A DNA stretch of 64,000 nt from a virus (taxonomy: Duplodnaviria; Caudoviricetes): positions 1 through 64,000 of the IMG/VR virus record IMGVR_UViG_3300029705_000100; one strand, 5' to 3'. The stretch's first letter is position 1; each line of letters begins with the position of its first letter. Both the position numbers and the translations under genes were made by a program. The notes beneath the pieces are model-generated. The model saw only the letters and a list, made by a program, of their open reading frames with translations, searched no databases and was not told the DNA's origin. Shown one piece after another: positions 642 to 34,034 of the stretch.

Positions 642-1919
642 TTATGCGTTCGCCGATGCAAAATCCGATAGAATGGCTTCGGCGCGATCAGTCATTGTCT
701 GCGTGTTTTTTATGTAAATATTTGCAGTCGTTGCCTGATTGGCATGGCCTTCCCAATGCTGAATTGTCTTGTCGTCTACGCCCAGTTCATGGAGAACTGT
801 GGCGTGGCTGTACCGAAACATATGCGGATGGAGATCATCGATTTCAAGAACCTTCTTGATTCTATCCATTGCCTTGCGAAGCATTGACTTCGTGTAGGGA
901 GTGTTGCTGTTGCCGACAATGTAATCTCCACAGACAGGAATGTTTTCCAGAATGATCTTCAATGGTTTGACCAGTGGAATTGTTCGGATGCTCTTCTTTG
1001 TCTTAGGGAGCTGAATGGTGGCGGTGTTGCTTCCGTTGTTGAAGGCAGCTTGCTTGGTGATGTGGATGCAGTTTTCGGCAAAGTCCACATTATCCCATGT
1101 GAGACCAAGCGCTTCGCCACGCCTCAGTCCTTCGTACATCATCAGTGCAACCAGAACTCTATCGGAAATGCCAAGATCGGGGAGGAGACTCTGAACTCGC
1201 AGCCATTCATCCTGACTCAAGGCGCGGCCTTCCTTTTTATCGGCGCCGGTCTTGGTTAGCTTACCCTTCGCGGGATTGATCACGATCAGCGATTCCTGAA
1301 TTGCCATATTGAAGATCTGTCGAAGTGTAATCAGCAGCTTATTCTGTGTGGATGCAGCGATCCTTCTGCTGTCGTTTAGCAGTTCCTGAATATTGGTGGT
1401 TGTGATTTCGTTGATCGGTTTGTCGCCAAAGACAGGATAAATGACGCGGTCCAACATTCTGCGGTAATCGTCAATGGTGGCGGGCTTCAGCTTGTTGTTA
1501 TCCTGCTTATAGACCCTGAACCACCATTCAGCCATATCTTTGAATGTGATCGTCTTTTCATGTTTGACTTCCGCGGAGTCGCTGCGAAGAACATAATCTC
1601 CCAACAGACCAGAATCAAGCACCATTTTTGCTGCTTTGAGCATAAACTCGTACTCGGTCTTGGCCTGTACATGCTTCATAATGGGAACATTGAATTCATT
1701 GATACCAATAGGTACTCGTCCACGTACCATAAAATCCTCTCCTTCTTGAGAGGGTTGTGTACCAACTGTGCTGTTATCAAGGTTCGTATCAAGAAGGACA
1801 CAGCGGATGTAATGGGCCAATTTCCGCTCATCCACGGTCACAGTGGCCTTCTTGCCATCTATGATATCCACTTTCAAACTGTCTGTCAACAGTTTTTCTC
1901 GCTCCTAACTGGTATCCAT
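642..1919 (-). CDS. int: Tyrosine integrase (in-frame TAG at codon 5)
   Basis: GLRRGE, LPKT, HMFRYSHA and TIQHWEGH catalytic motifs; ATG at 1919 with GGAGGTG RBS, reading MDTS*EREKLLTDSL with TAG at 1905-1907. Confidence 0.9.
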
Positions 1920-4130: not shown

Positions 4131-4318
4131 GCATCATCGCCGTCCTTGACATTGATGTACAGGCCGCAATGACAGTCCTGTTTCTCTCGAAAATCCTTAC
4201 AGGGGCACTTGTTTTCAGGCTTCTTTTCCTACTTACAGGGGCAATGGCCATTGTTGGCTTTGATGCGCTTTTTGAGGCTCTTGACGAACACTTCGTCGGG
4301 GTTTAGCATAACACCCAT
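4124..4318 (-). CDS. Ferredoxin:thioredoxin reductase catalytic-subunit-like protein (1 in-frame TAG)
   Basis: NGHCPCK*EKKPENKCPCKDF...CHCGLY with the CPC/CPC/CHC signature; TAG at 4229-4231. Confidence 0.8.
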
Positions 4319-7221
4319 CAGAATCCCTCCAATCCGTCGTTGTAGTAGCGACGTTCTTCTTCCTCCTGTCGCTCCTTGGAGAAACTGGAAACCAATTTTA
4401 GATAGCCGATGACGCGGGTAGCGTAATCAAGATCCTTGCTATCGCAAATCGGGCATTCAGCAAGGCGGTGTTTGCTGATATATCCACAAGTTTTGCACAA
4501 GGTGTTGTGGATATTGAAGGTAAAATAGCTGCATCCGGTCCTAATCGCTGCTTCCAGAAGCAGAAGATACTGTTCCTTCGTCAGATGGTCATCCAGATTG
4601 ATGTGACAGGCGCTGCCGCCATCAAGATACTTGGTAAAAGCCTTGCCGTGAAGCATCAGCTTGTCCAGTACATTGACTTTCGGATCTTCAACCCGGAAAA
4701 AGTAGGAATTGTAGCAGTCGCGAGGGACAAACAGTTTTGCTGCCTTATCCCATGCGGCATTCTTCACGCCCAAGCCTTCTGCGGGCACCATTTCTGTGTT
4801 CCAGAGGATACCATTGCCTCGGGCTGCTCTGTTGGCCTCATATATAGGCTGGAGAACTGCTTCCGTATAGGCAATGTAGTCAGCATTTGTGGGATCAATT
4901 TCAATTCCCAGCGATTCCGCGCCCTCAATGAAGCCATTGATGCCAACCGTGAGATACTGCTTTTCCAGATTGACGAACCCAGCATCATATACAGGCAGAA
5001 GGCCTGCTTTTTGGCGTTCATGAAGGATTTCATTGAACACCAGCAGGTATCTGTGGACCTTTTCAACCTGAATCTTCATTGCCTCTCGCACATCATCCAG
5101 CCCGCGATCCCAGATGGCATTCTGAACAAGCCGATTGACATTGATGGTTATGACGCACTTGCTGCCAGTAGATACACCGCCTGCGCCAAGCGTGTAGGAG
5201 AAGGTGTTGTCCTGCAATTCATTGCGAAGGCGACAGTTATGAGTGATCATGCCGCTGGGGAGTGTGAAGTACGGTTCATTTTGGTTTGCAATCTCAAAGC
5301 AGTAAACAGATTCGCCATCGCGATCGGTGCATCTGCTAACTTCAGCAACGCGGAAATACATGCCGTTGTTGACGATACGGAAGACATTACCCATGCTACG
5401 TTTGTTTCTTGGTTCATACCAACGAATGCAGTACAGCGGGTAATTGCGGTTCCATATTTCACCGCGTATAACGACAGGTTCATCAGTGCGGTCACTGATA
5501 TTGATGCTGGTGTTCAAGCCCAATGAGGAGCACAGTGCTTCAATATCGTCAATCAGACCAGTAGATGTGCTGTAGATGCGATTGTTGTTACCGCCATCTG
5601 TCGCGTACAGTCCATCCAGAATACCTCGCCTGAAGTCAACGGACTGGATCAGCACCTCTGCGTTCAGTCTCTTAGTATTACTGTTCCTGCCGTCAACATA
5701 TCGGAAAATGAACGACGAAAGCTCATCGCTGTATAGGCTTACTGGATACATGCTATGGAGTGGCTTGTACAGCGTGAAATCACTGTCGATACCGATATCT
5801 CGCAGAGCAGCATTCATTCTTTCGATACAGTCGCCATACTTACTCTCGTTGAGAGAGAAATGGACTGTTTTTTGACATGGACCGTGCGAATCAACGCTAC
5901 CATCGCCAAGATACATGCCGATGAGGAAACCTTGGTTGTAGGACAGTCCAATATCCTTTTCAGGAACGGGATCAAGTTGCAGTGTATTGAAGAGAATGTA
6001 ATCGTCAGTATTCAGTTGATCTGCGCGGACATCGCCTCTGAGCGTCGGAAACAGATGATTATCCGTTACCACTACAGATTTGTTGTTGGAGGTGCACACC
6101 GAGTACATCGGACGACCGTGAAGCTTAATGGTTTTGGCGTGAACCCAGCTCCCATTGTGATATACACACATGTTGGCCTTGTTTCCGCTGTATTTCATGT
6201 CGTGGAGTTCCTTGATAGGCATCAGGAATACGCCGGTACTGCTCTTGGCCAGAACCTTTGTATCTCCGGCAAAACAACAGCTTGAAAGACTGTCTACACT
6301 GTCCGATCTGTACACAAAGAAACTGTGTCCTTCAGCCCACATCTCTGCAACAAAGTCCTTCCACTCCTGATCGACATAGTCGTTGCCATCGTCCAGCAGA
6401 TTTACTGTTTCTACCGGGAATGTGAGCATCTTGCGCAGGCGTTCCTTGTTGAACCACTTCATAAAACGCTTCTGCAGCCAGTTGACGGATTCCCATCGCA
6501 TAGGCGTCCCATCCGGAAAGACGAAGTTTTCGAACATGCCATGAAAGTAAGGCTTGTCGAAGTACGCGATATTAAAGAAGACCGATTGATTGCCCCTGGC
6601 CGCTGCTGGCTGATTTAAGCTGTACACTACCTGTTCAAAGTTGTCTGTGATCACCTTGTCAATGGTACGCTTGCGGCTGGACGATTCAACACATTCATTC
6701 ACATGAAGATAGTAGTCGTCGCCGTATTCCTTGCGAATGAAATAGTCCATATAGGCGATCCATTCGGGGGTGCTGATGGCACCACAGAACTGAGAAGCGA
6801 GTGCAAACACCAGATTGATGAAAGAGCCGGTGAATGCAGCAAGATTCTTCGGAGCTTCGCTTGTACCGCCGATCGTGGTGTTTCCGTGAAACAGGAACGG
6901 ATAGAGCGTTACACTTGCACAGTAGGGTTTACCGATAACGCCCGTTTCATCATGCCGGTAGATCTCATGCTCCTCCAGCTGGCGAAGGTATTCCTCGGCG
7001 GTATCAACGCCATACATCTGACTGAGCTTCTGGTACATCGCCAATCGATTGATGGCAATGGCATCACGCTTAAACAGCTCCGTTTCGAGCGTTGCAATGC
7101 TCTTTCGCTCGACATTTGCGTTCGGGTCAACTTCGCTGCCGGTAGCGGCATTGATGGCTTTGCCATATCGAGAGATAAAATCCTAATGGGATGCGTGATC
7201 CCGGTATTTGTCAATTCGCAT
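4318..7221 (-). CDS. nrdD: Anaerobic ribonucleoside-triphosphate reductase with intein (TAG at codon 13)
   Basis: LTFPV, SSC|CRL, EMVPAEGLG, C-terminal zinc ribbon and TRVIGYL; ATG at 7221 (AAAGGA RBS), TAG at 7183-7185 (SH*DFISRY). Confidence 0.93.
5236..6276 (-). mobile_element. Intein with LAGLIDADG homing endonuclease in NrdD (347 aa)
   Basis: Begins CFAGDT, ends ITHN followed by Cys; LIGMYLGDGS and GILDGLYATDGG motifs. Confidence 0.92.
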
Positions 7222-7426
7222 GGGAGTTCGTCCTTTCATTGAGCCACGCAAGCGCAGCCGGATAGTCCATCATCTTGCCGTCTACAGACAGCATCGGCAG
7301 ATGTGTAATTCCCTGGGCAAGCATTTCATCGGTATTGCTGTTGATCGAGTAATCAATACCGGATTCATCCAGGCGAGCCTTCAGAACTTCGCAGCAGGGG
7401 CAGTGATTGCTGTAGAGTACAATCAT
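7211..7426 (-). CDS. Glutaredoxin/NrdH-like redoxin
   Basis: YSNHCPCC and LPML motifs, 71 aa. Confidence 0.8.
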   Translation of the reverse strand: MIVLYSNHCPCCEVLKARLDESGIDYSINSNTDEMLAQGITHLPMLSVDGKMMDYPAALAWLNERTNSHAN

Positions 7427-8037
7427 TCCGACACCTCCATGTCATCGAAGACGACTGGGATGGCAGCTTTGGCCTGCATAAACTACTCGCGCATAAGAAA
7501 ACGCATTTCCGGATAGGCTGCCTTGCTCATGCGCAGACCGAATATGTGTCGCCATTCACGCAGATTTGCTTTCATAATAATCTTGGTTGCCGTAGAGTTA
7601 GGAAGCACCTTTCTTGCGTCTTCCGGTTTACATCCAGCGTTCAAAAGAGCATGATAGGCGCGTTCGTCAGCTTCCATGCAGCGCTGCCAAAATTCGGAAT
7701 CGGTATCACCAGGACTGTAGAACAGTGGCTGAATGAAGGCGATCTGACCGCTCATACAGACATAGCGCTGGCTTTCGATGGCAAAGCTTGCAAGGCGATG
7801 ACGCGTGATTTCCGCCATGACGTCGCGGGAAGTGATCTACTCAACTGTCATGTCAGCAAATTCAAGAGGGGAGAGGTGACCGCGTCGGATCAACGAGCGC
7901 ACAAATCGAGGAGCGCTGTCCTCGGTAATTTTTACTTCGGAGCGGTAGCAGTTGCGACCGGCTACCTCAATATCGCGAAGAGCCTACATTCCATCAGTCG
8001 GTCTCAGAATCTTCGCACTCTGGTTCAGTATCTTCAT
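7423..8037 (-). CDS. thyX: Flavin-dependent thymidylate synthase (3 in-frame TAG)
   Basis: GRNCYRS, RGHLSPLE, EITRHRLASFAIESQRY, ARKVLPN, NLREWRH; TAG at 7984-7986, 7837-7839, 7483-7485. Confidence 0.92.
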
Positions 8038-8308
8038 CTTCAGATTCTCCTTCAATGATTGTGTTGTGGATGCGTTGAGCGATGGTGCGCGGCGTCAGAG
8101 CACATCCGTATACCTTGCCGTCATCCATAAGGATCAACGCTTTGGTCATGCGTCCCGCTGTCAGGTCATGAAATACTTTCTCGTCTTTGGCGGCCTTGCA
8201 GAGCCGTCTTGCATTGGCGGACAGCGGCATGAGGATGGCTTCAATGCGATTGGCGCAAAGGACATTGCCAAAGCCAACATGCACAAATCGCTAAGGGGTA
8301 AATGCCAT
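7994..8308 (-). CDS. RemA/DUF370-like regulatory protein (TAG at codon 6)
   Basis: MAFTP*RFVHVGFGNV...DLTAGRMTKALILMDDG; GGAAGGAG RBS; TAG at 8291-8293. Confidence 0.7.
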
Positions 8309-8356
8309 GAAATATAGCTCCTTCCATTAGGATATAAGCAGGTCTTCAACCTGCGA

Positions 8357-8443
8357 TGGTAGGAGCAGCGGGGATCGAACCCGCACGCCGTTTCCGGCAG
8401 CGGTTTTAGAGACCGCCGCGTATGCCAGTTCCGCCATGCTCCC
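8357..8443 (-). tRNA. Amber-decoding tRNA (anticodon CUA) with tRNA-Leu body
   Basis: 87-nt class II cloverleaf; anticodon arm GCGGT-CTCTAAA-ACCGC (anticodon at 8407-8409); D arm GCGGAACTGGCATACGC; variable arm GCCG-GAAA-CGGC; A73; encoded CCA. Confidence 0.95.
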
Positions 8444-8556
8444 TTGATAGAGGGACTTTGTTTTGTCCTTCATCTATTAAGGGGGATATTTTGGCAAAAA
8501 ACTTACAAGGATGAGTGATTTTGTTCGAACATTGATGTGTTGGGAATAGATAGGGT

Positions 8557-8588
8557 AAAAGAAAACAGTCACGAATACTCGTGACTGT
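8557..8588 (-). terminator. Intrinsic terminator upstream of the suppressor tRNA
   Basis: CAGTCACGA/TCGTGACTG stem followed by TTTTCTTTT on the minus strand. Confidence 0.75.
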
Positions 8589-8599
8589 AGTAGAACGTA

Positions 8600-9388
8600 T
8601 TATTTGAGTGCCTTCATACTCAGAAAGTTACTTTTAGCTTCGTTGTAATCAGATAGTTTTCTATCCCATTCAGTACGGTTTTTGGCATTACGCAATACTT
8701 CGTGCAAGGACACATCGTCGAAAAATCTGGTGTCTTCATCACAGTAGCATTTTTTAGCATATTGCTTGAGGAAAAGTAGTACCGCTTCGCTACAACGCTC
8801 TTCTTCATACTCTGGGGGATAATTGTGGATGCATTTCGCCATATCGTCAACGAAGTACAGCATGTCGGGTGGAGGATCAAAATCCACAATTTCACCGTCA
8901 ATTTCAACAGGAACGGGTTTGGTATCGATACCATTTTTCTTTAGCTTATAATCGAAATATGAGCGTAGACTCTCCGCACATACCATTTCATAGTCATACC
9001 TGCAAATATCCTTGTATTGTGATAGTAATCTGTCAATGGTGGTTCGTTCACTTTTCCACAAATACCTTGCATTATGGTCTTTCAAAAGTGAAGTGAGTTC
9101 CTTGTATCTTTGCCAAGTTGGTTCATCACTCAAAACCGTCCGCATCGGGTACAAAACCGACGATTTCAGATTGTTTCTATTACCGAACCTGAAGTATATC
9201 GCAGATATTATCCATGAAACAACACCGGATAAGACGACGGATATCAAAGTGAAGATGTTAACGCGGATATTCTCCGGAGCAAAAATCCATTTCAGATAGG
9301 ATATAACATACGCAATAATCTCTTTCATGTGACACCGTCCAATCAAAGAATGTGCCTTTATAATACAGCAAATGGAGGTATTTTTCAA
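8600..9388 (-). CDS. AT-rich cargo hypothetical protein with N-terminal TM segment
   Basis: 262-aa ORF with hydrophobic N-terminus; start may be at MKEII. Confidence 0.7.
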   Translation of the reverse strand: MKNTSICCIIKAHSLIGRCHMKEIIAYVISYLKWIFAPENIRVNIFTLISVVLSGVVSWIISAIYFRFGNRNNLKSSVLYPMRTVLSDEPTWQRYKELTSLLKDHNARYLWKSERTTIDRLLSQYKDICRYDYEMVCAESLRSYFDYKLKKNGIDTKPVPVEIDGEIVDFDPPPDMLYFVDDMAKCIHNYPPEYEEERCSEAVLLFLKQYAKKCYCDEDTRFFDDVSLHEVLRNAKNRTEWDRKLSDYNEAKSNFLSMKALK

Positions 9389-9561
9389 TACTGCTGCAGA
9401 GAATTCAGATAATTGAGGCCCAAGCTATGCTTACATAGAATTATGAAAAAAGTTCACAACGATAGTGGAAACACAGCTTGAATAGAGGTATATTCATATG
9501 AGGTTAGATGCTGAAACATAATATATGATAACTACCGAGGTGTACAAGCTGAAATATCCTA

Positions 9562-10344
9562 TTGATTAACTCGCAGAGCCGCGTTATACTATATTCGAAG
9601 GGAATACAACCGATGATGATTGAGAGGACGAGATATATGAACGGTACTATCTATGCAATACGTACGGAAACTTTTCCTAAAAGAAGATTGATCAATAATG
9701 ACCTATACAGATTGTTTGAACTCGTAGCAAAAAAGTATCAAGTGATACATGGTAAGCGTGGAAAGGTTATCTATTTATACGACGATGTCTTCGAAGATGT
9801 CTACCTTTCAAACACTGTACGGTTTGTGGCTAAATACGCAACAAAGTTCATTAGAAAAGTACCACTTCAAGACAATCCTATACATTGTGCAGGAAGGTAT
9901 GCATCGAAGAATCAAATAATGCTTTTGCTGAATGAAAATAGCCGGTTTACAAGCGTAAATACTATTTTTATTCTTGTCGTGTTGTTGAAGTTACTCTTAC
10001 TCGATGAACGCAGTAAAGAATTTAGAAGTCTATCATGTCGGAAAAAGTCTATCATGCCAGTAACAGAAAAGAACATTATTCCTAACGATATAGAAGATGA
10101 TATAGCTGTTTCATTTTTGAAACAGCATATAGAAAACTTGCTCAATGACCCATATTATCGACATTATGTTCCTTCACGACATTTTATATGTGAATATATT
10201 ATAGATTGTTACGATGAACTGATTGAGCTCGTAGGCAACAATGCTATTGACGCATTGCGCAAGGCAAAGAATAAAGCGGAAGGTAATATGGGGATACTTG
10301 CTGTACAGCCACTCCAAATGCCGCGTTATCCAGCAACCATGTAA
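9562..10344 (+). CDS. AT-rich cargo hypothetical protein
   Basis: 260-aa ORF; start uncertain. Confidence 0.65.
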   Translation: MINSQSRVILYSKGIQPMMIERTRYMNGTIYAIRTETFPKRRLINNDLYRLFELVAKKYQVIHGKRGKVIYLYDDVFEDVYLSNTVRFVAKYATKFIRKVPLQDNPIHCAGRYASKNQIMLLLNENSRFTSVNTIFILVVLLKLLLLDERSKEFRSLSCRKKSIMPVTEKNIIPNDIEDDIAVSFLKQHIENLLNDPYYRHYVPSRHFICEYIIDCYDELIELVGNNAIDALRKAKNKAEGNMGILAVQPLQMPRYPATM

Positions 10345-10349
10345 ATGCA

Positions 10350-11021
10350 ATGAGGAGGAGGAGCATGAATAAAAGCCCGTTTGTACCCGAATACCTAAGG
10401 AATATGCGTATAAATACATCAGAAAAATGGATGTTTTTTGCGTCGGGCATCAGTTCATATATTGCGTCCCTTTTTGCAGAAGGATTCGTTGATGAAGGAC
10501 GACCCTTGTTAGTAAGTTTTATCTTTGGCTGCGGTGTTTTTTTAGTGCTATTCATATTATCCGTTTGTATTGTTTATTTGAAAAACAATTCATTCTTTTA
10601 CCGTTATCCAAAATTGAGTGAATATGAGATATGCAGTTTCATTAACGAGAAGTTACCGGATGAATTGATGAGAATAAATAACAATATGGCAAACGCTACT
10701 GACGATATAAATAAACAGGTTTTATGCCAACACATCTTGTATCAACTTGATGTAATTATTGAATTCATTGATACACATGTTAGAGAAAGCTTGATTAGGG
10801 GGAAGAATAACAATGGCCATATGACCGGTCGTGCCTATAATCGCATAACCCCTGATCATTTAGAGGCCGTACTGTGTTGTATATACAGAATACTTGTACA
10901 AGTGATTCCTGAAATACCTGACAATACGTATGCAGAGGCACTGAAAAGACAAGTAAATTGCCTGGCATGTAAACATCTGAAATGTGATTCAATAGAAAAA
11001 AGCAAATACATGCCTTTATGA
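10350..11021 (+). CDS. AT-rich cargo membrane protein (2 TM)
   Basis: 223-aa ORF with two hydrophobic segments; AGGAGG RBS before MNKS. Confidence 0.65.
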   Translation: MRRRSMNKSPFVPEYLRNMRINTSEKWMFFASGISSYIASLFAEGFVDEGRPLLVSFIFGCGVFLVLFILSVCIVYLKNNSFFYRYPKLSEYEICSFINEKLPDELMRINNNMANATDDINKQVLCQHILYQLDVIIEFIDTHVRESLIRGKNNNGHMTGRAYNRITPDHLEAVLCCIYRILVQVIPEIPDNTYAEALKRQVNCLACKHLKCDSIEKSKYMPL

Positions 11022-11250
11022 ACAAGAAATGAATTTGATATTTGAGTGTTAGCTTCTTTACTGTATGATGTCGTTTCTTCAAGCAAGCGCTGTTGTAACT
11101 AGCAAGTTGGCAATCCAATCTATCTTCACAAGTGAATAGCAGTGGAGTAAGCCAAAATAATAATATTACCTCAGCCAATCGTAATATAACTTATGATTTG
11201 CTGAGGTATATTGTTCTGGTTTTGAACTCGTGTTGAGATTCACACAAATA

Positions 11251-11889
11251 TCAATCAGGAGAATACGATTTCTTTCCGTGACAATTTTTGAATTTTTCTC
11301 CACTACCGCACGGGCACGGATCATTCCTGCCAACGGTTATGTTGGATAGTGGATTCCTGTTGTACAATACCAATGCTCGTTCATATATAGCTTGCTCAGC
11401 TATAGGTGGCAATCCGATATCTACACTCCCGTCATCATTGGCACAATACCTAAATAGCATGGATAAAGCGAACGCGTATGCATCCAGTTCAATTTCCTGC
11501 AAAAAATGAAGGCTTGTAGTCTCAGGAGTATTCCTTACATAATGATCAAATTCTTGTTGCCATCGGAGAATATTTTCCGGCCTCTCTGCTGCAAAGTTGT
11601 TGTCTTTCTGGAACTGTATTTGCTGCATCTGATATATATGGCGAATTTCGTGCCATATAATGTACATTACATCCTGTTCAGTTGTTGAGCAAAACCAATC
11701 AAGATTAACCGTGATTGTTCCATTTGAAGAAGCCACAGCTCCAATCAGTTGATCGTTGAAATGGTTGATGTTCACTCTTTCAAACGCAAAACGCACTTGT
11801 CCACAGTTCAAGAAAGGCATATGCCTCACAGAAAGCATCAAAAGATGATTAAGATATTCAAAGGCTTTGATTGGTTCAAATTCTCTCAC
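11251..11889 (-). CDS. HEXXH metallopeptidase-like protein with C-terminal SEC-C zinc motif
   Basis: [33 protein letters not shown]. Confidence 0.75.
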
Positions 11890-12203
11890 TACTCATCCTC
11901 CTCCGAACCCATTCTCTCACAGTACCACAAAAATTCGAGGAGCATTTTATTGTCCAAGTATCGCCTAAGTAGGGCTATACCTTCGCAAGCAAATGCCATA
12001 CCCATCATCCAGCAGAAAGGTATGTAATCATTCTTAAGTAATCTGGAGACACCAACGACTCCGCAAACAATGGCTATTACGCTCCATACAATCGGGATGA
12101 AAGGAGATATTGCACAGTATATTATGCGTATAGAGATCATGACATTAGATATCTGATCAGAGTGATTCGAATTTCCTTTTTTGGTATGGCACATAGTCTT
12201 CAC
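11889..12203 (-). CDS. Small membrane protein
   Basis: 104 aa, hydrophobic; stop overlaps start of next gene. Confidence 0.55.
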
Positions 12204-12358
12204 TCCTACGACGTTGTCTCTGTATAGGGTTTCAATTACGATTTATTATAGCATTTTCTCGTCTTTATATCAATCCTCGGAATAAGAGGAAGGAATTGTA
12301 ATTTATCTCACGAATAATGTATTAGGAACATATATAAACGGCAAAGAGGAAGGCTTAT

Positions 12359-13222
12359 ATGAGCAATGTGACACTTGAGACCTCTAACTTCGGAGAGCAA
12401 TTAGGGGCATATGATTTTTTTAACGTTCTTGTATCAGGTTCCGTATTCTTGTCATCTTTGGCTGGTATACTACTCTGCATCAATGACAATCTGAAGACTC
12501 TCCCGGATATATCGATTCTTGAAGGCGTTATTATTTCAGTTGCTGTTTTTTTTGTTGGACTCATAATTCAAGAATTGGGATCAATAGCGGATCGGTGCAT
12601 ATGGCATGTTAAGGAGTATAACTATCGCAATTTTCTAAAGAAATCTTGTCCGGACAAACGAATTATGAGAATGAAGCGGACTTGGAAATATGTTGATAAA
12701 ATTGCATACAGGCAAGCGCAAAAATCCAATAAGGGAAACTGTGTGATCCACAACCCAGCACTGCTTTGTTATTATAGAGAGATTGCAAAAGGCATCATTG
12801 ACAGTCATCCAGTAATAAAGAAGAAAAGTGAGTATTCGGATCCACTCGAAGATGACAATGTAAATCGTTGCATCTTCAGTTATTGTGAATACTTCGTTTC
12901 CTGCCAAGGAAAAGATAAGAAGGTAGAAAAACTTCGTGCGCTGTTTGCCATGGCACGCTCATTCGCAACATGCTCGTTTTTGGTTGAAGTGTGTTCGTTG
13001 ATAGCGATAATATACAAGTGCTTGAGCGATAATCTAAACCCACTCTCAATTTATACAAATCCAGACCTACAAAAATTGTCAGCAGTGTGCATAGTATGTC
13101 TTGTGTCGTATCAGTTATTTAGAAGCAGAATGACCAAAATGATGCGCTATATGATTCTGATATTGATGGGAAACTACAATGCATGCATCATCTCTCAAGA
13201 ATTTGAGCGTAAAGGCTCTTAA
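12359..13222 (+). CDS. Multi-pass membrane hypothetical protein
   Basis: 287 aa, GAYDFFNVLVSG start, about 4 TM segments, GAGGAAGG RBS. Confidence 0.7.
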   Translation: MSNVTLETSNFGEQLGAYDFFNVLVSGSVFLSSLAGILLCINDNLKTLPDISILEGVIISVAVFFVGLIIQELGSIADRCIWHVKEYNYRNFLKKSCPDKRIMRMKRTWKYVDKIAYRQAQKSNKGNCVIHNPALLCYYREIAKGIIDSHPVIKKKSEYSDPLEDDNVNRCIFSYCEYFVSCQGKDKKVEKLRALFAMARSFATCSFLVEVCSLIAIIYKCLSDNLNPLSIYTNPDLQKLSAVCIVCLVSYQLFRSRMTKMMRYMILILMGNYNACIISQEFERKGS

Positions 13223-13338
13223 ACATAGACCAAAAACAATAGCTCGATCATGATATAACCTTCTGATTGTTATCCAATGATCAAGCTATTGTTTTACTTA
13301 TTAGTTGTGGTGAGGATCACCGGGCCCGAACCCGCATG

Positions 13339-14274
13339 GGTACTGTCAAGAGTTGTGCGCAAATTCGTTCACAGGCATCCAGTGAAATCAGCCGTCAGGC
13401 AATAGAGGCGTCGCTCAAAGCGGCCTCCAAGTGCTTCATGTTCATGTATTTCTTACTGCCCCATTGAGTACCTGCGACATGGCGCAGGCGGGCACAGACG
13501 AGCATCAGCGCGGAATTGCCGTCGGGGAAGGTTCCGACTACTCTGGTTCGCCGTCGGATCTCGCGGTTCAGGCGTTCAATGACGTTGTTCGTGCGGATCC
13601 AGGTCCAATGCTCGGAGGGGAAATCGCAGTAGGTCAGCGTTTCTTCAATGCTGTCTTCCACCCTCTTCGCCGCCTCTTTCAGTTTTATCTCGCGGAGTTC
13701 AGCGATGACTGCTTTAGCTTTTTCTCGCGCTGCCTTTTTGCTTTCCTGTGCATGAATCGCCTTGAGCATCTTCGCCACCAGCTTCACCTTCGGACGCGGC
13801 ACGACGGAAAACACATTGCGGTAGAAATGTACTATGCAGCGCTGGTATTTCGCATCCGGAAATACCTCGCCGACTAGCCTCCAGCATGCCCAGACATTTG
13901 TCGCCCACTATCAGCTTTACGCCCTCCAGACCGCGTCCCTTCAGCCACTGGAAGAAGCTGACCCAGCTGGCCTTATCCTCCTTCATGCCCTCTGCGGCCC
14001 CCAGAATCTCGCGATATCCGTCTTCATTGACCGCAATCGCCACCAGAATGGCCACATTTTCGTATTCTCCGCCCCAGTTCCGGCGCAAATAGATGTCGTC
14101 CACATACACATACGGATATTTTCCACCCTGCAGCGGTCGGTTACTTCCTCGTTCAGTGTTACAATCTTCTCAGACATGGTTCCCAGGCTCCTTTCAGAAT
14201 GTGTAGTGTCGCGACTTCATTCTACCACTTGCCTGTCAACCATGTCTATTTCTTTTTGCGCAACTTATTGTACC
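13339..14274 (-). pseudogene. IS256-family element, internally deleted and frameshifted
   Basis: Fragments MSEKIV.., YVDDIYLRR, RTNNVIERLNREIRRR in different frames; imperfect GGTAC..TTG(T)GCGCAAA terminal repeats; ends approximate. Confidence 0.8.
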
Positions 14275-14439
14275 TTATCGACATATTTCTTTTTTGCACT
14301 ACAAATTGTGCATTATCTGTAACCGTCAAATAATCCCTCGTGAGAATTGTCGCTATCTATCGCGATATCTCGATATCTACAAAAAAGGCTCAGAAGTATC
14401 CGGTCAAACGGTACCACTGAGTCTTTTTGTATAAGGCTG

Positions 14440-16173
14440 TTATCGGCAAAGCTTCTGTAGCTGCTGATTCCATGGCGCAAGCATATCCAGGAAGTCACAG
14501 GAATACCGCCCACCAGCGCAAGGCATTTGCTCCAGCAGGTATTTCAGATATTTGTATGGATCCAGTCCGTTGGCTTTCGCCGTTTCCACAATGCTGTAGA
14601 CTGCAGCACTGGCTGTGGCTCCGTTCGGCGTATTGCAGAACAGCCAGTTCTTCCGGCCCATCACGAATGGACGGATGGCGTTTTCATCCAGATTGTTCGA
14701 GATCGGAATCCGTCCATTCAGCAGGAAACTGCCGAGAATCTGCTTCTGGCCGGTGGCGTAGCCTACTGCCTTGCTCAGCGGTGAATTCCGCAGCGCGTCA
14801 ATGCTGCTGCACCATGTCCAGAATGCTTCCAGCACGGGTCGGCTTCGTTTTTCGCGTTCCGTCTGCCGTTCTGCCGGAGAAAGTCCTGCGAATTCACGCT
14901 CCAGCATGAACAGTTTTTCGCAGAATTCAAAGCCTTCCTTCGCTTTGCTGCCCTGTGCCTGTTCTCCGTTCGGATCGCTGCCGGGAATTGCTTCGAGAAA
15001 TTTCCGGCGCACATGTGCCCAGCAGCCGCAGCGGGTTCCGTTTGTTACCTTGCTGTACCCTGCGTAGCCGTCCGTGACAAAGTATCCATCATACCCTTCG
15101 AGGAACTTCTTTGCATAGTCCCCGGAGCGTCCCGGCTGGTAGTCGAATAGAACAATCTGCTTCTCTTCATGTTCACCGCTCCGGTAGGCCCACATGTAGG
15201 ACTCGCTGGTCGGCGTCCTTCCCGGCTCCTTCAGCACCTGTACTGTGGTTTCGTCGCAGTGCAGAACACTGCTCTTCAGTAGTTCCGTTTTCATATGCTT
15301 CCATAGCGGGGCAAAGTAGTCTCTGTCAACCGCCAGCACCCAGTTCGCCAGCGTTGCACGGTTCATCTTAAGGCCTGCTCTCTCCCAGTCCTGCACCTGC
15401 CGGTACATCGGAATGGCCATGACATATTTGTCGTACAGCACCTGTGCTACAGTACTGGCGCTGGCTATACTGTGCTTCAGTACGGGATATCTGTGTCCCT
15501 CCGGAACATCTGCCTTTACGAGAACCATTCCCGGTCTGTTTTCACATTTGGCACAGACATCCATGTCCGCACGTTCACAGCCTTCACACTCCGGCATACC
15601 ATCTTCACAGCCGCGGCAGGCGTAGGTCGCGCGGTAATACTCGTGAACCTTTACCTGTGCAGGAATATATTCGCACTCCTTGCGGATATACTCCCTGCCG
15701 ATTTTCTCAAGGGCATGTCCGCAGCGGCGGCAGACCTGCTCTTCTGCCGGGAGCTCGTATTCATGAATCTCCACCGGCAGCCCGTCCAGCAGTTCCTCAC
15801 GGCTGCGTTTCCTGGCTCGCTTGTGCGATTTCACTTCAACCGTGCTTTCTGGGAGCGCTGTCGGATCTTTTGCTTTGGCGTCCGCTGCATCCTCTGCTTC
15901 GTTGAAGATGCTCAGCTGTTCGCAGTCCGCCGGGAGCACAGTCAGCGGCTTCTGTTTTTCGCTCTTGCTCCCGAAATGTGCCTTCTGCAGATTACGGTAC
16001 ATGGCGCTCATATTTTCCAGACGATTCTCCAGATACGTTATGTACTCCTTCGCTTCGGGCGACAGCGTTCTTTCGTCCGGACGTTCCATGACACCGCCTC
16101 CTGCGTCTTTTTCTTCCAACTCCATTATATCACGATCCGGCAGACAGAACAAATGACCGGCGCGCAGCAGCAC
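14440..16173 (-). CDS. tnpC: IS66 transposase
   Basis: LHCDETTVQVL, CWAHVRRKF, ISNNLDENAIRPFVMGRKNWLF; true start probably nearer 16089. Confidence 0.92.
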   Translation of the reverse strand: MLLRAGHLFCLPDRDIMELEEKDAGGGVMERPDERTLSPEAKEYITYLENRLENMSAMYRNLQKAHFGSKSEKQKPLTVLPADCEQLSIFNEAEDAADAKAKDPTALPESTVEVKSHKRARKRSREELLDGLPVEIHEYELPAEEQVCRRCGHALEKIGREYIRKECEYIPAQVKVHEYYRATYACRGCEDGMPECEGCERADMDVCAKCENRPGMVLVKADVPEGHRYPVLKHSIASASTVAQVLYDKYVMAIPMYRQVQDWERAGLKMNRATLANWVLAVDRDYFAPLWKHMKTELLKSSVLHCDETTVQVLKEPGRTPTSESYMWAYRSGEHEEKQIVLFDYQPGRSGDYAKKFLEGYDGYFVTDGYAGYSKVTNGTRCGCWAHVRRKFLEAIPGSDPNGEQAQGSKAKEGFEFCEKLFMLEREFAGLSPAERQTEREKRSRPVLEAFWTWCSSIDALRNSPLSKAVGYATGQKQILGSFLLNGRIPISNNLDENAIRPFVMGRKNWLFCNTPNGATASAAVYSIVETAKANGLDPYKYLKYLLEQMPCAGGRYSCDFLDMLAPWNQQLQKLCR

Positions 16174-16206
16174 CGGCCAAAATTCGAAAAGTATTAAATC
16201 TCTGTG

Positions 16207-16632
16207 TCACACCAGATCTTTGGCACTGACATTTTTGTGCGCTTTGGGCTGAACGATGCTCAGGCCTTCCATGAGCCAGCGATACTGCTGCGGGGTAAGT
16301 TGCTGCACTTCTTCACGGGTACGCGGCCATTGATAGCGACCGTTCTCCAGACGTTTGTACAGCAGCACAAATCCGTCTCCGTCCCAGAACAATGCCTTGA
16401 ACCGGTCGCTCCTTTTGCCGCAGAACAGAAAGACTGCCTGCTGTCTGGGATCCAGTCTGAACTGCTGCTGCACCTGCGCTGCCAGTCCGTTGATTCCACG
16501 GCGCATATCTGTGTATCCGCAGGCAATATATATCGCGCCGATCTGACTCAGATCCAGCGTCTTCATCTCAGCATCTCCAGAACCTGACGCAGCAGCGTTA
16601 CGTCCGCTCCATTCCGGATTTCTATGCTCCAT
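16207..16632 (-). CDS. tnpB: IS66 accessory protein
   Basis: GYTDMRRGINGL, LFWDGDGFVLLYKRLE. Confidence 0.9.
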   Translation of the reverse strand: MEHRNPEWSGRNAAASGSGDAEMKTLDLSQIGAIYIACGYTDMRRGINGLAAQVQQQFRLDPRQQAVFLFCGKRSDRFKALFWDGDGFVLLYKRLENGRYQWPRTREEVQQLTPQQYRWLMEGLSIVQPKAHKNVSAKDLV

Positions 16633-16946
16633 TCGCCTTTGCGCAGAATGATCTGCGCAGCTTCAACAGCGTCCGCCTGTTGTGCTTCGCGATATGGAAC
16701 CGGTTCGAAGTTTACTGGAACCAACTGCCTTTCTTCCGCCTGGATCATCTGCGATCCTATGCTTTTCACGGGCAGTTTTCTGCTTTCCTGTTCCCATACC
16801 AACCTCTGCCGACGATAATATGTCGCAACCGGCATACTGTGCTCTCTGCACCATGCCGCTACCGTCTGACCGCTATTCCGGCAGTCATGTACCATTTCCC
16901 GCCACTGCTTCAGTATTGCTTCACGTTTTGCATCCTGTAGTTTCAT
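16563..16946 (-). CDS. tnpA: IS66 accessory HTH protein
   Basis: SGQTVAAWCREH...YYRR pattern. Confidence 0.85.
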   Translation of the reverse strand: MKLQDAKREAILKQWREMVHDCRNSGQTVAAWCREHSMPVATYYRRQRLVWEQESRKLPVKSIGSQMIQAEERQLVPVNFEPVPYREAQQADAVEAAQIILRKGEWSIEIRNGADVTLLRQVLEMLR

Positions 16947-17143
16947 CCCATCCGCCCTCTCATGAGAGTTAGCGCTATCTCTCGCTATATCGCGCGATTC
17001 TATTATCTCATGGGAATTTTCGGCGCGGGGAGACGGGGGATTATTTGACGCTTACCATTATCTCGATGATGGTGGTGTCTAGTAACTATGGCTAGAATAA
17101 GAACCAATGCGATCTTTCTTTTACTTCATCTCATCTATGATTA

Positions 17144-17173
17144 AAGCCACTTTGCAGAGGAGCAAAGTGGCTT
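17144..17173. terminator. Terminator-like hairpin, target of group IIC intron
   Basis: AAGCCACTTTGC-AGAGGA-GCAAAGTGGCTT, 6 nt before the intron 5' end. Confidence 0.75.
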
Positions 17174-17179
17174 CTTTGA

Positions 17180-19096
17180 GTGCGCCCGGCGGCGCACGTT
17201 TCTAAAGGGTGAAAGACCCGAATCCGCCCGGTAGCGGGAAGGAGATAGCCGAAGGCAAGGGGGTCCCTCGTGAGGCGGAATCTGAAGGAAGCCGGATGTG
17301 GGGAAAAAAACTCACGGGCAAACCTCTGGCCTGACGAAAAGAAACCGCATATAAGGTTATGCATGAGGGTAAGGCTGCTCAACAAGACGAAGCCCAATAG
17401 CTACACGGAATCATGCGTGATAGATGCGGCAGGTAGATGGAGGGAAAGAAACGTGTGGGACCCGGGGAGGTCTGCGCGGAACGCGCCGAAAGGCGTAACC
17501 ACAGCCATAAAAGGAAAGCTGTGCTGAACGCGCAGAAGTCAGCCGAGGCCATAGTACCTTGTGGGGAAAAAACAAGGGAAGGGCCGAACCAATACAGCCG
17601 GAGTAACCGGGGAAAGGAGAACTGCATGAAGAGAGCAGAAAATACCGAAAGTAGCTGCCTGCAAATGAATAGCACGGAATGCGAAGGGTATGCAGGAGCG
17701 CAGAGTGCGGTTAAACCGGAACGAGGAGAAACGGAAAGCAGACAGCCGAAGCTGCTTGAGGCGATACTGGACAGGGATAACCTGAACAGGGCGTACAAGC
17801 GAGTGAAGGCGAACAAGGGAGCACCGGGAGTAGACGGGATGACCGTAGAGGAGGCGCTGCCATGGCTCAAAGAACACGGGAAGGAATTGCGGGAAAGTAT
17901 CCGCGAGGGGAAGTACAAGCCGGAGCCGGTGAGGCGGAAAGAAATACCGAAGCCGGACGGAGGAGTACGGAAGCTGGGGATACCGACGGTGAAAGACCGG
18001 ATCATCCAACAGGCGATCGCTCAGCAATTGACGCCGCTGTATGAACCGAAGTTAACGGAAGGGAGCTATGGATACCGACCGGGAAGAAGCGCACAGGATG
18101 CGATCTTCAAGATCCGGGGATATGCAGAGGACGGATATGAATGGGCGGTACTGCTCGATCTGAGCAAGTATTTCGATACGCTGAACCATGAGAAACTGCT
18201 GAACATCCTGCGGGAGACCGTGAAGGATGAGCGGGTGATACAGATGATAAAGAAGTATCTGAAAAGCGGAGCGATGGAGAACGGCGTGAAGATCGCGACG
18301 GAAGAAGGACGTCCGCAGGGAGGCCCGCTGTCACCGCTGCTAGCGAATGTGTACCTGAATGAGTTTGACATGGAATACGAGAGACGAGGGGTACCGGTAG
18401 TGAGGTACGCAGATGACATCGTATTGCTGTGCAAAAGTCAAAGAGCAGGGGAACGACTGCTGAAGAGCAGCATCCGCTATCTGGAAGGGAAACTGAAGCT
18501 AAAGGTGAACCGGGAGAAAATCCATATCGCAAAGGTAAACGCGACGAAGAAGTTCAAGTTTCTGGGCTTCTCGTACAGTAAGGGAAAGGAAGGACTGTTC
18601 ATACGAGTCCACCCGAAAGCCCTGCTGAAAGCGAAGAACAGGCTAAGGGAACTGACGAAGCGGAACCGTGGAAAGAATGTCAGACAGGTCATGAAAGAAG
18701 TAAAACAGTACATGACAGGGTGGCTGAATTACTATGCGACAGCGTCCATGAAGCAGAGAATGCGGGAATGGGACGAATGGCTGCGGCACAGAATCCGGGC
18801 ATATATCTGGAAGCAATGGAAGAAGCCAAGAACCAAACTGAGAAACCTGATGAAGCTGGGCGTACCGGAGTACTTCGCGCAGATGGCGGCGAACAGCAGG
18901 AGAGGATATTGGTTTACGGTAGATACCGGAGCCGTGAAAAGAGCGATAACAAATGAAAGACTCGCACGCGCAGGGTTCTTTGAACTCTCCCCGGCATACG
19001 AGTCTATTCAGTCTGCTTGTATTGGACGCGCCGTGTACCGAACGGTACGCACGGTGTGGTGAGAGGTCGGGAGTTAATCGCCCCCTCCTACTCGAT
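17180..19096 (+). mobile_element. Group II intron (class IIC)
   Basis: 5' GTGCG; domain V CGCCGTGTACCGAACGGTACGCACGGTGTGGTGAGAGG; 3' CTACTCGAT; inserted after a hairpin. Confidence 0.92.
17626..19062 (+). CDS. ltrA: Group II intron reverse transcriptase/maturase
   Basis: GIPTVKDRIIQQA, PQGGPLSPLLANVYL, RYADD, domain X; no endonuclease domain; AAAGGAG RBS. Confidence 0.93.
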   Translation: MKRAENTESSCLQMNSTECEGYAGAQSAVKPERGETESRQPKLLEAILDRDNLNRAYKRVKANKGAPGVDGMTVEEALPWLKEHGKELRESIREGKYKPEPVRRKEIPKPDGGVRKLGIPTVKDRIIQQAIAQQLTPLYEPKLTEGSYGYRPGRSAQDAIFKIRGYAEDGYEWAVLLDLSKYFDTLNHEKLLNILRETVKDERVIQMIKKYLKSGAMENGVKIATEEGRPQGGPLSPLLANVYLNEFDMEYERRGVPVVRYADDIVLLCKSQRAGERLLKSSIRYLEGKLKLKVNREKIHIAKVNATKKFKFLGFSYSKGKEGLFIRVHPKALLKAKNRLRELTKRNRGKNVRQVMKEVKQYMTGWLNYYATASMKQRMREWDEWLRHRIRAYIWKQWKKPRTKLRNLMKLGVPEYFAQMAANSRRGYWFTVDTGAVKRAITNERLARAGFFELSPAYESIQSACIGRAVYRTVRTVW

Positions 19097-19262
19097 CGAT
19101 CTGAAATGGATAGCATCTATCTATAATTAAGTAAAAAAAGTATTATTTGCACATATACATTTCTTCTGGTACTGTCTACATATATTATACCACCGAATTC
19201 TCTCTCTATTCGGTATACTCCAATACGGGTGCCAGAAGATCGTTTGGCTTAATTGACCTGTT

Positions 19263-19886
19263 TCAGGTAGTATGCCTTGAAGCAATGCATTTAGTTAAGA
19301 CTACGATTTTTCTGTTTGCAACTCGTAGTTTCACATAATCTTCCAATTCATGAGCAAAAACAAGGGTGTTACAGCATCCTTCTTCGCGCATGTGATATAT
19401 TTCAGTTTCCCAACGGTGCTGATCGTCTTCATCTAACGGTAATCCATTTTCGAATAGTTCCTTTTGAATAGTCTGATCCTCAGATAAAGAACCACCCTTT
19501 TCTGCTTTTTTTATATCGAGCATAATAAAATTACGAACTGTCGATAATCCAGTGTAAAGAGCAACAGCCTCATTAAAGGTCCACTGAGATTTGGGTTTCT
19601 CGTAAAACTTGGAGTCAACCTTTTTAAGAGGCTTCGCTTGTAAAATTGCGACCATCAAAGCGCCAGCAACTTTGTATCTATTCAACCTACCCGATGGATC
19701 TTTCATATAATGGTTTTTTGCATGTACTCTTGCTTCTTCATAATAGTTACGAAGTTGCACCTTAACATCATCGGGTAAAAAGACTAATCCACCATAAGTC
19801 CTAACTAAATATTCACATCTGGGCTTTATGATTTTTTCCCATGTCTCATTAAACTGCCGTTCAGTCATTATAACTCCTACGTCCAA
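19263..19886 (-). CDS. AT-rich cargo hypothetical protein
   Basis: 207-aa ORF, GTAGGAG RBS. Confidence 0.7.
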   Translation of the reverse strand: MDVGVIMTERQFNETWEKIIKPRCEYLVRTYGGLVFLPDDVKVQLRNYYEEARVHAKNHYMKDPSGRLNRYKVAGALMVAILQAKPLKKVDSKFYEKPKSQWTFNEAVALYTGLSTVRNFIMLDIKKAEKGGSLSEDQTIQKELFENGLPLDEDDQHRWETEIYHMREEGCCNTLVFAHELEDYVKLRVANRKIVVLTKCIASRHTT

Positions 19887-20068
19887 TCATATTTATTTCT
19901 CTTCGGGCTGATATGAAAGTTCTTGAGCAAATTCTAAGGTTTCACCATAATCCTCGTCGCTATTGCTAAGTTCAGGGATTACAGAAACATCTCGTGTAGA
20001 ACTTCTATTTATGGGTAACGAAAAACCAATAATGATAACCGCGATGATTAAAGCAATAAAAAAGAAAC

Positions 20069-20566
20069 TCATGATTTTCCCCCCTGACCTACATTGGCGG
20101 AATGAATACTCTTTGGACGATTGAAATATCCCCTAGCAGTATTTCGGCTCTGAGAATATACTATGCGAAGGGCATAGAACTTTTTCAACATAAAAAGTGC
20201 AGGAGAGATCATCATTAGAATTTTTAAGCCAAACGAGACATATCCTTGAACCTCTGCCGGGATTTGTGAAAATAAATCAACACCATTAGATTTAAACACA
20301 TACGCACTTCCAAGAAAAAGTAAATATAATATTCCTGAAATCATCGCTAAACGATCAATTGTGTACTGCGATGAATTGTAGGCTGTAACGTGTTCAAAAT
20401 CTTCAATCACATCAATTACTAAAGGTGTCAAATAGAGCACAACAACTAAAATCATAGTTGTAAAACTCTCAGACCATATAGCAAAGAAATGCGATACCAG
20501 ACCTAACACAGATATAAAGAAAAGCCACACCGAGGACGAAAGTGATCTATTACGCATGTTCAACAT
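20069..20566 (-). CDS. AT-rich cargo membrane protein (about 4 TM)
   Basis: 165-aa hydrophobic ORF. Confidence 0.65.
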   Translation of the reverse strand: MLNMRNRSLSSSVWLFFISVLGLVSHFFAIWSESFTTMILVVVLYLTPLVIDVIEDFEHVTAYNSSQYTIDRLAMISGILYLLFLGSAYVFKSNGVDLFSQIPAEVQGYVSFGLKILMMISPALFMLKKFYALRIVYSQSRNTARGYFNRPKSIHSANVGQGGKS

Positions 20567-20759
20567 CCTGTCAAGTATTCTATCTTTACAATTATTGTAT
20601 CAAAAGATTGGGAATAGTACAAGTAGTTGATATACCATATCTTGTCGTTTTTTTTATTTTTAAGTAAATATTTATTGAATTCAAAACTCATGAAGCATCT
20701 AGTTCACGGTATCGCACTGAGGATTGTAGGCGTCCTATTAAACTCAGTTATGCGTACAG

Positions 20760-21000
20760 CACCGTATCATTTATAAAGTGAAGTACGGGCTTCCGTCCGT
20801 AATCACCGTAATCTTTTCCTCCGGAGTATTTCATAGTGTGGGTGCAAAGTCGGCCACTTTCTCATCGCTGCTTTTCAGCTGTTTTGAGAAGAAGTGAGCA
20901 TTTTGCGCTGCGAGGTACGGCTGGCACATTCGTCCTCGATGGCCTTGCACCGATCAGCGGCATCCTGATAACGCTCTGCCAGCGCATTGCTATTTGCATT
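20760..21000 (-). pseudogene. Possible decayed C-terminal remnant of a serine recombinase
   Basis: Frameshifted fragments ALAERYQDAADRCKAIEDE / KQLKSSDEKVADF / KITVITDGSPYFTFINDT resemble recombinase coiled-coil tails. Confidence 0.3.
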
Positions 21001-21190
21001 ATAATATCAATGACATTTTCCTGAGAAGAACTTTGTTGATATTATTCCGATAATGAGATATACTATTACCAAGAAAAGTAACCAGATTGCACAACACCAT
21101 TCATGACAACACCCCAATGCCATCTTCACGGAAGGCAAACTGTCAGCGATCTTACTCTACGTTGCGCTGATTTATAATAGGAGAAACACC

Positions 21191-22414: not shown

Positions 22415-22426
22415 AATAAACAATAC

Positions 22427-22465
22427 CCCCAACTCATTTTGGGAATATTCCAAAGAGAGTTGGGG
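22427..22465. terminator. Hairpin between convergent TNT-like and DNA polymerase genes
   Basis: CCCCAACTC...GAGTTGGGG inverted repeat. Confidence 0.55.
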
Positions 22466-22527
22466 CGTTATCAACGTGATTTATACGGTAGGTATATGAA
22501 CAATCACACATGTAGACTTTTAGAAGA

Positions 22528-25500: not shown

Positions 25501-25704
25501 CTGATTACCGTGTTCGCAGGAGGACAAAACGGAATACCCGAGCTCGACAGCGCGGCGGGCATAGTCTTCGTTGGTGGCCACGCTGTCGGTGAGCAGGATA
25601 TTGCTGACACAGGAGTGCCGGTGATAGCAGACATAGGGAATGTCCGGCGCGGCGTCGGTTGTCGGCGCCGCGCGTGGAACATCCTATACGGGAGCAGTGG
25701 TCAT
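22528..25704 (-). CDS. dnaE: DNA polymerase III alpha-like (family C) polymerase (5 in-frame TAG)
   Basis: PHP domain, GRGSA, LPDIDMN, SPHPCA, ILYQEQ, YLFNASHA; TAG at 25684-6, 23968-70, 23338-40, 22675-7, 22657-9 joins three track ORFs in one frame. Confidence 0.93.
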
Positions 25705-26483: not shown

Positions 26484-26994
26484 GATGCTGCTCCTTTGCG
26501 TTCATATCATTGTGGGGAGGATCGTTTGCATCCAACTCTTCCAAACGAAGTTCAAGGTCAGCAGCCAGAGCCTTACGCAGGGACTCAGGATAGGACGGAA
26601 ACATAGCGTTGATGAAGCGCTGCTCATCCCCCTCAAACACTACGCCGCCATGGTCGGAATGGTGCTGAACGACGCTCTCCAGATGGGCAGCGCACAGCAG
26701 AATGCCAAAACACTTCTCACGCACAGCTGCAGCACAGCCCGGATTCAAAGTTTTGCCCTTCATCTCGCAATCGGCGAGGTGAGCAGGATACCTGTTCAGC
26801 TTGCTGCTGCCCGTGCGCTTCAGATAATCGAGCGCGCGTGCAATAATCTCCCGGGATTGCATGATGCGGTGATAGTGCTCGTCGAGGAGCTTGATTGCAG
26901 TTTCCTCGTCCATAAGAATGATAATTTCTGTGTTCATAGTGCCTCCATAGTCGTGGTCAGAAGGGCTGCGTACTCTCAGCCATGCGGATTGCAT
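26464..26994 (-). CDS. Hypothetical protein
   Basis: Operonic ORF; start probably at MNTEII. Confidence 0.55.
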   Translation of the reverse strand: MQSAWLRVRSPSDHDYGGTMNTEIIILMDEETAIKLLDEHYHRIMQSREIIARALDYLKRTGSSKLNRYPAHLADCEMKGKTLNPGCAAAVREKCFGILLCAAHLESVVQHHSDHGGVVFEGDEQRFINAMFPSYPESLRKALAADLELRLEELDANDPPHNDMNAKEQHHVPHSR

Positions 26995-33965: not shown

Positions 33966-34034
33966 GTCATGCACTCCTTTCGTAGTCGAAAAAAGCTGCC
34001 GGCTGTTCAGCAGCTTGAGAGAACGCTTGTGTAT

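Follow-up and report, generated by a model that had tools for sequence, protein, structure and literature searches.

Gut phages that reassign a stop codon with a suppressor tRNA of their own have been described among the crAss-like, Lak, Garnet/Topaz and other groups, and they follow either code 15, in which TAG is read as Gln, or code 4, in which TGA is read as Trp (bioRxiv 10.1101/2021.08.26.457843; PMC9523058; PMC10607447). Where the code of a phage differs from that of its host, just TAG-to-Gln and TGA-to-Trp have been observed (bioRxiv 10.1101/2021.08.26.457843). Published surveys of recoded phages point to GlnRS and TrpRS as the synthetases open to phage exploitation, and other papers on phage recoding assume code 15. 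Outside phages, TAG-to-Leu is found in chlorophycean and chytrid mitochondria, where it is listed as NCBI tables 16 and 22 (PMC6551751, PMC6131824), and UAG is leucine in some phyllopharyngean ciliates (PMC11687900). In the phage literature searched, a body of work that takes in few of the subscription journals, no phage was described as reading TAG as Leu.

A leucine-inserting amber suppressor is familiar from the laboratory. E. coli supP (Su+6) is a mutant of the cellular leuX gene for a tRNA-Leu, in which the anticodon CAA has become CUA. Bacterial leucyl-tRNA synthetase (LeuRS) recognizes A73 and the D-arm/tertiary core of its tRNA and does not read the anticodon.

Here we describe a phage tRNA gene with anticodon CUA that combines features of these systems. 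As in the recoded gut phages, the tRNA(CUA) belongs to the phage, the host uses the standard code, TAG lies in genes for replication and for the virion, neither the integrase nor the early genes contain the recoded codon, and a phage synthetase was not found in the record. Unlike in those phages, the amino acid indicated is Leu instead of Gln and the tRNA is a class II derivative of tRNA-Leu; neither a release factor 2 gene nor a ribozyme beside the tRNA was found here. With supP/Su+6, which works because LeuRS ignores the anticodon, the gene shares a tRNA-Leu body carrying CUA, one base from the CAA isoacceptor; however, nothing depends on the laboratory mutant, whereas the phage gene is natural and conserved and dozens of phage codons depend on it. 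The reassignment is the same as in the mitochondria and ciliates, but there it is genome-wide, in an organelle or a nucleus, whereas here it would be the code of a virus inside a host that reads TAG as stop. Stop recoding by a phage suppressor tRNA is already known.

The phage record and its gene map

The DNA analysed, called the window below, is a stretch of 64 kb, the first part of a 72,042-bp virus record of prophage type. CheckV estimates the completeness of the record at 37%, and the record lacks genes for tail and lysis. Animal faecal and gut metagenomes, bovine and sheep among them, contain this DNA; among the public runs listed for positions 4318-8600, none was of RNA. A homologue in the databases bears the label Candidatus Ventricola, and a related prophage is integrated beside a tRNA-Pro in a Clostridia metagenome-assembled genome (MAG) from goat reticulum. 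The element is a temperate phage of gut Clostridia, temperate because it carries a tyrosine integrase. Genes were called with a simple in-house caller, and their starts are approximate. Two tRNAs of the window were called by ARAGORN, the CUA tRNA and a tRNA-Lys. The features used below are as follows.

378-453: tRNA-Lys(UUU), at the left edge of the record
642-1889, minus strand: tyrosine integrase (Pfam PF00589), adjoining the tRNA-Lys, free of TAG as called
4318-7221, minus strand: NrdD-type anaerobic ribonucleotide reductase (PHROG 25611, 1e-184)
7423-8055, minus strand: ThyX (Pfam PF02511, 5e-47), start approximate, with in-frame TAGs
7994-8308, minus strand: RemA-like gene (Pfam PF04025, 1.2e-19), directly downstream of the CUA tRNA
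8357-8443, minus strand: class II tRNA of 87 nt, anticodon CUA, tRNA-Leu body (ARAGORN, Rfam, covariation)
8357-8360, minus strand: discriminator A73 (8360) and encoded CCA (8357-8359), read from the sequence and invariant in 14 homologues
8407-8409, minus strand: anticodon CUA, which reads UAG (ARAGORN, sequence)
8565-8588, minus strand: terminator-like hairpin from a consensus scan only, about 120 nt upstream of the tRNA, ending the cargo block described below
22528-25704, minus strand: DNA polymerase III alpha-type (homology, gene call), TAG at codons 7, 579, 789, 1010 and 1016
26957-28753, minus strand: primase-helicase (homology, gene call), TAG at codons 181 and 412
29717-52437, minus strand: early arm (gene call), 5,812 called codons, zero TAG
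59523-61142, plus strand: large terminase (homology, gene call), TAG at codons 60 and 427
61156-62700, plus strand: portal (homology, gene call), TAG at codons 7, 265 and 514

The record also encodes a NUDIX protein, a PD-(D/E)XK nuclease and an SSB, and the head genes lie on the plus-strand side. The tRNA-Lys(UUU) beside the integrase is probably the attachment site; in the relative G002 a tRNA-Pro takes its place. The early arm holds a stand-alone reverse transcriptase (RVT_1, 45663-46958) and an ArdC-like anti-restriction/metallopeptidase gene (33093-33974). For a close relative, the matches of the head and connector proteins are to the SPbeta prophage families YonB, YomX and YomW. Taken with the CheckV estimate, these SPbeta-like proteins suggest that the complete genome far exceeds the 72 kb of the record.

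A conserved CUA tRNA with a leucine-type body

The CUA tRNA scores 52.1 bits against the Rfam tRNA family RF00005, for which the gathering score is 29, with a local E value of 3e-10. It is the sole Rfam match in positions 8000-8800, where neither an HDV-like nor a theta ribozyme, of the kinds known to accompany phage suppressor tRNAs, was detected. The acceptor stem has seven base pairs (GGGAGCA/UGCUCCU, with G1-U72) and is followed by U8 and G9. The D arm consists of a 3-bp stem (GCG/CGC) and an 11-nt loop (GAACUGGCAUA), and the 5-bp anticodon stem (GCGGU/ACCGC) closes the loop CU-CUA-AA. The variable arm of 15 nt contains a 4-bp stem (U-GCCG-GAAA-CGGC-GU), and the T arm reads GCGGG-UUCGAUC-CCCGC. 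Position 15 is A, and the last base of the variable region (48) is U.

A pattern scan for homologues recovered CUA tRNAs from 4 IMG/VR contigs, 6 genome contigs and 39 metagenome contigs. Among the 25 distinct sequences obtained, 14 belong to the gut and rumen clade and were used for covariation. These 14 homologues, from related phage contigs, share the cloverleaf, with 96.7% of cells paired compared with 43-56% in slid controls. Compensatory changes on both sides occur in 9 of 24 stem pairs, and two of the four pairs of the variable-arm stem covary. Among 500 shuffles, 0-1 reached the observed values on four of five measures; on the fifth, the count of further pair types, the homologues were not above the shuffles. 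The anticodon CUA is common to all 14. Both the D arm and the anticodon loop sat in the search pattern and are therefore invariant by construction; A73 and CCA lay outside the pattern and are invariant all the same. The CUA tRNA is thus conserved and structurally constrained beyond chance.

Several comparisons point to leucine as the origin of the body. BLAST against annotated phage tRNAs returned tRNA-Leu for six of the six nearest. Two candidate host MAGs contain related prophages; there, tRNA-Leu made up 3 of 3 next-best matches (CAA, UAA and GAG), and across 61 genomes from the order of one of these MAGs all 9 matching tRNAs were tRNA-Leu. The nearest cellular tRNAs were therefore tRNA-Leu in 12 of 12 cases, in a set that lacks the tRNA-Tyr of an incomplete host MAG. 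Complete E. coli genomes yielded no BLAST match to the CUA tRNA.

The details of the fold agree with this assignment. The 3-bp D stem, the 11-nt D loop and the placement of G18G19 are as in tRNA-Leu, and the D arm is one base off that of the tRNA-Leu(GAG) of a related-prophage MAG. The pair A15/U48 matches the tRNA-Leu genes of the candidate host MAGs, whereas G73 and G15 replace A73 and A15 in the three tRNA-Ser genes of these MAGs. Since the anticodon CUA is not a leucine anticodon (NAG or YAA), the gene is a tRNA-Leu derivative and not an ordinary isoacceptor. The anticodon loop of the tRNA-Leu(CAA) of the same MAG equals that of the CUA tRNA except at position 35, which makes descent from a CAA isoacceptor through a single change plausible, as far as sequence comparison can indicate; no CAA ancestor was found at the tRNA locus.

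ARAGORN prints the gene as tRNA-Pyl, a label that follows from the anticodon alone. A tRNA-Pyl has a very short variable loop, a small D loop and an elongated anticodon stem. We rejected the label on the basis of the 15-nt variable arm, the 11-nt D loop and the 5-bp anticodon stem.

The original prediction had described an intact class II tRNA with CUA, A73, A15/U48 and an encoded CCA, and ARAGORN, Rfam and the sequence itself bear out each of these features. The D-arm string that it gave is exact, and the strand, which it had left unstated, is minus. Its proposal of a leucine-type body was likewise upheld by the nearest tRNAs and by the D arm. Taken together, these data make it very probable that this phage gene encodes an amber suppressor whose ancestor was a bacterial tRNA-Leu. 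From the anticodon-blind recognition described above, we infer that the host LeuRS charges it.

In-frame TAG codons and their distribution

In the 72 genes called, 38 TAG codons are in frame, corresponding to about 2.7% of Leu codons. They occur in the DNA polymerase, primase-helicase, NrdD, ThyX, terminase, portal and other genes. Conserved genes are open solely when TAG is read through, TGA and TAA never interrupt them, and all called genes that end inside the record stop at TGA or TAA. For comparison we used G001, an 80-kb IMG/VR provirus that was the closest relative fetched and whose polymerase is 72% identical; its aligned genes contain 55 in-frame TAG and one TGA. The single TAG of NrdD, at codon 13 (7183-7185), is TAG in G001 too.

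The distribution of TAG is uneven. Late genes carry 4.2 TAGs per 1000 codons, replisome genes 3.9 and the nucleotide module 2.8, whereas the early arm and the inserted cargo have none. Furthermore, the first 40 codons hold 13 of the 31 alignment-supported TAGs compared with 44 of the 501 Leu codons of the same genes (OR 7.5, p 3e-6).

Proteins of this clade in public collections often end at TAG, giving polymerase fragments of 776 and 700 aa and terminase fragments of 383 aa, the latter broken off after codon 426. This lineage turns up often in gut assemblies from ENA and Logan, and its genes are miscalled systematically.

The host code was tested on the G002 MAG, the host of a related prophage and not the window phage's own host. 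In this MAG, prfA, the gene for RF1, scores 488 bits, above the cut-off of 423 bits, and long ORFs end in TGA 58 times, in TAA 57 times and in TAG 6 times. The six TAG-terminated ORFs indicate that TAG is a rare but real stop there. RF-1, PCRF and class Ia synthetase domains were absent from the 72-kb record, which is incomplete (CheckV 37%). This is consistent with one tRNA gene being sufficient and with no need for a phage synthetase; a helper gene could lie elsewhere, since the record is incomplete.

A mechanism can be proposed from these observations. The host LeuRS would charge the CUA tRNA, and the charged tRNA would compete with host RF1 at UAG, where Leu would be inserted. Modification by MiaA to i6A37 strengthens the decoding of codons that start with U, and A36-A37-A38 makes the CUA tRNA a likely substrate. 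Insertion of Leu would yield full-length nucleotide-metabolism, replisome and virion proteins. The CUA tRNA appears to lie in a leftward operon behind replisome genes, and the early arm and the integrase are TAG-free, so early and lysogeny genes would be independent of the suppressor. When the tRNA is missing, in the lysogen or very early, TAG genes would be truncated, often inside the first 40 codons; transcription of the operon would supply the tRNA, and the TAG genes would then be read through. TAG = Leu may then be a translational timing lock besides a code change. The TAG-free early arm and the enrichment in the first 40 codons fit such a translational gate.

It is conceivable that Leu is inserted but that suppression is only partial against RF1, with TAG serving mainly as an attenuator of the amount or timing of expression and with mostly truncated products. 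The retention of RF1 in the related host, the rarity of TAG and its concentration near gene starts speak in favour of such leakiness, as does the finding that neither an RF1 antagonist nor an RF2 gene was found in the record. However, several essential single-copy enzymes hold two to five TAGs each, five in the case of the polymerase, which would multiply any inefficiency, and relatives are richer in TAG, as the count for G001 indicates. We consider partial suppression unlikely, although more probable than the other alternatives to efficient reading of TAG as leucine.

TAG occupies leucine positions

The amino acid was derived from aligned relatives, a source independent of the shape of the tRNA. 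In the alignment with G001, TAG codons of the window stand opposite TAG in 11 cases, a Leu codon in 15 and another codon in 5; conversely, TAG codons of G001 stand opposite a Leu codon of the window in 36 cases and another codon in 9. Leu is therefore opposite TAG in 51 of the 65 non-TAG pairs (15 of 20 for window TAG, 36 of 45 for G001 TAG), whereas Tyr and Gln occur once each and Ser not at all. Since Leu makes up 7.9% of aligned residues, the binomial probability for Leu opposite TAG is 3e-14. In a substitution likelihood from the same alignments Leu was the best amino acid, 111 log units above Met and 165 above Gln, and TAG pairs with Leu about as often (75%) as ordinary Leu codons pair with Leu (77%).

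Standard-code homologues at 57-66% identity (47 polymerases and 38 terminases) were used to check individual columns. Codon 579 of the polymerase (23968-23970) is Leu in 47 of 47 homologues, the column of codon 1016 contains 21 L, 17 V and 7 I, and codon 427 of the terminase (60801-60803) corresponds to 34 L and 4 F among 38. In other columns of these distant homologues Leu is outnumbered and the residues, although hydrophobic, are mixed, as at polymerase codon 789 (28 Y, 12 L) and terminase codon 60 (18 V, 15 I, 5 L). In a three-way alignment of the RemA-like gene, codon 6 (8291-8293) is TAG in the window and TTA (Leu) in two relatives. The same bias of TAG towards Leu positions is seen in five further relatives.

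By these alignments, TAG occupies in this phage lineage the leucine positions of relatives. Two claims of the original prediction can be judged here: that the phage is recoded held, since conserved essential genes read through TAG and not through TGA or TAA, and the predicted meaning, TAG = Leu, was supported by comparisons made independently of the tRNA's shape. Code 15 was rejected, since Gln accounts for 1 and Leu for 51 of the 65 pairs.

Bacterial TyrRS identity elements include A73 and U35. By these textbook rules the CUA tRNA could also be read by TyrRS, polymerase codon 789 is mostly Tyr in distant homologues, and ARAGORN suggests pyrrolysine, so a tRNA that carries Tyr, Ser, Gln or pyrrolysine had to be weighed. 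The residues found opposite TAG and the position of Gln far below Leu in the likelihood both argue against this; so do A73 with A15/U48, as in tRNA-Leu, against the G73 of the host tRNA-Ser genes, a variable arm and D loop unlike those of tRNA-Pyl or tRNA-Gln, and nearest tRNAs that are all Leu. An amino acid other than leucine is therefore very improbable.

The tRNA locus in relatives

In relatives, the gene order is DNA polymerase, tRNA, RemA-like gene, ThyX and NrdD, and in both G001 and G002 the CUA tRNA follows the polymerase by about 40 nt or less. In the window, a 14-kb block (8600-22500) lies between the DNA polymerase and the CUA tRNA. The block has a low GC content of 37-45% and is TAG-free; it contains a group II intron (Rfam, 17264-19096) with an intron-encoded protein at about 17437-19062, besides unannotated genes and one for a SEC-C-motif protein, and it looks like a later insertion of cargo in the standard code. 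The insertion and the terminator-like hairpin split the tRNA from the polymerase operon in the window phage, and no sigma-70-like promoter was seen ahead of the tRNA in a consensus scan.

A more distant locus, L131 (GCA_031550535.1, a 300-kb contig), has a CUA tRNA at 9188-9273, at the syntenic site. Its polymerase is 65% identical to that of the window, and only one in-frame TAG occurs among 2,474 aligned residues. Two standard-code sisters (L132 and L133), slightly more distant than L131 and represented by loci of only about 15 kb each, have no tRNA between the polymerase and RemA. A tRNA with a single TAG in L131 and sisters without the tRNA suggest that the tRNA was gained first and that TAGs accumulated later.

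Other Leu-type CUA tRNAs occur in metagenome contigs and in MAGs from soil and elsewhere (Bryobacterales, Thermoleophilia, Phycisphaerae), with acceptor stems typical of the respective phylum; the Thermoleophilia tRNA has chromosomal neighbours that encode an Era-type GTPase and a DeoC-family aldolase. Recoded neighbours of these Bryobacterales, Thermoleophilia and Phycisphaerae tRNAs were not evident, and the tRNAs were not counted as support.

That the CUA tRNA is incidental, with the TAG genes being decaying pseudogenes or assembly artefacts or with TAG being read by a host suppressor, might be raised because the element is an integrated prophage, prophages often decay and the database gene calls of the clade are fragmented, but this is still less credible, given that only TAG interrupts (55 TAG against one TGA), that frames are conserved across TAG at 57-82% identity, that 11 window TAG codons are TAG in G001 too, that the pattern is repeated in many independent assemblies, that the searched loci have the tRNA in TAG-rich relatives and lack it in two standard-code sisters, and that the related-prophage MAG encodes RF1 and genuinely terminates genes at TAG.

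Implications

On balance, we lean towards the view that these phages use a third natural phage code, TAG = leucine, which arises from a single tRNA-Leu(CUA) gene and the host LeuRS and is widespread among the SPbeta-like temperate phages that infect gut and rumen Clostridia, and in which early TAGs in replication and virion genes would be locks that the tRNA opens. On the same view, the code has been hidden because pipelines cut genes at TAG or translate it as glutamine.

A leucine reassignment would mean that an anticodon-blind synthetase is exploitable by phages too, with one tRNA gene. Annotation of this clade under code 15 would place a wrong residue at every TAG site. The gene may also provide a natural and compact Leu amber-suppressor system for anaerobic Firmicutes, and it would allow a direct test, in a temperate phage, of whether codon choice times the lytic genes.
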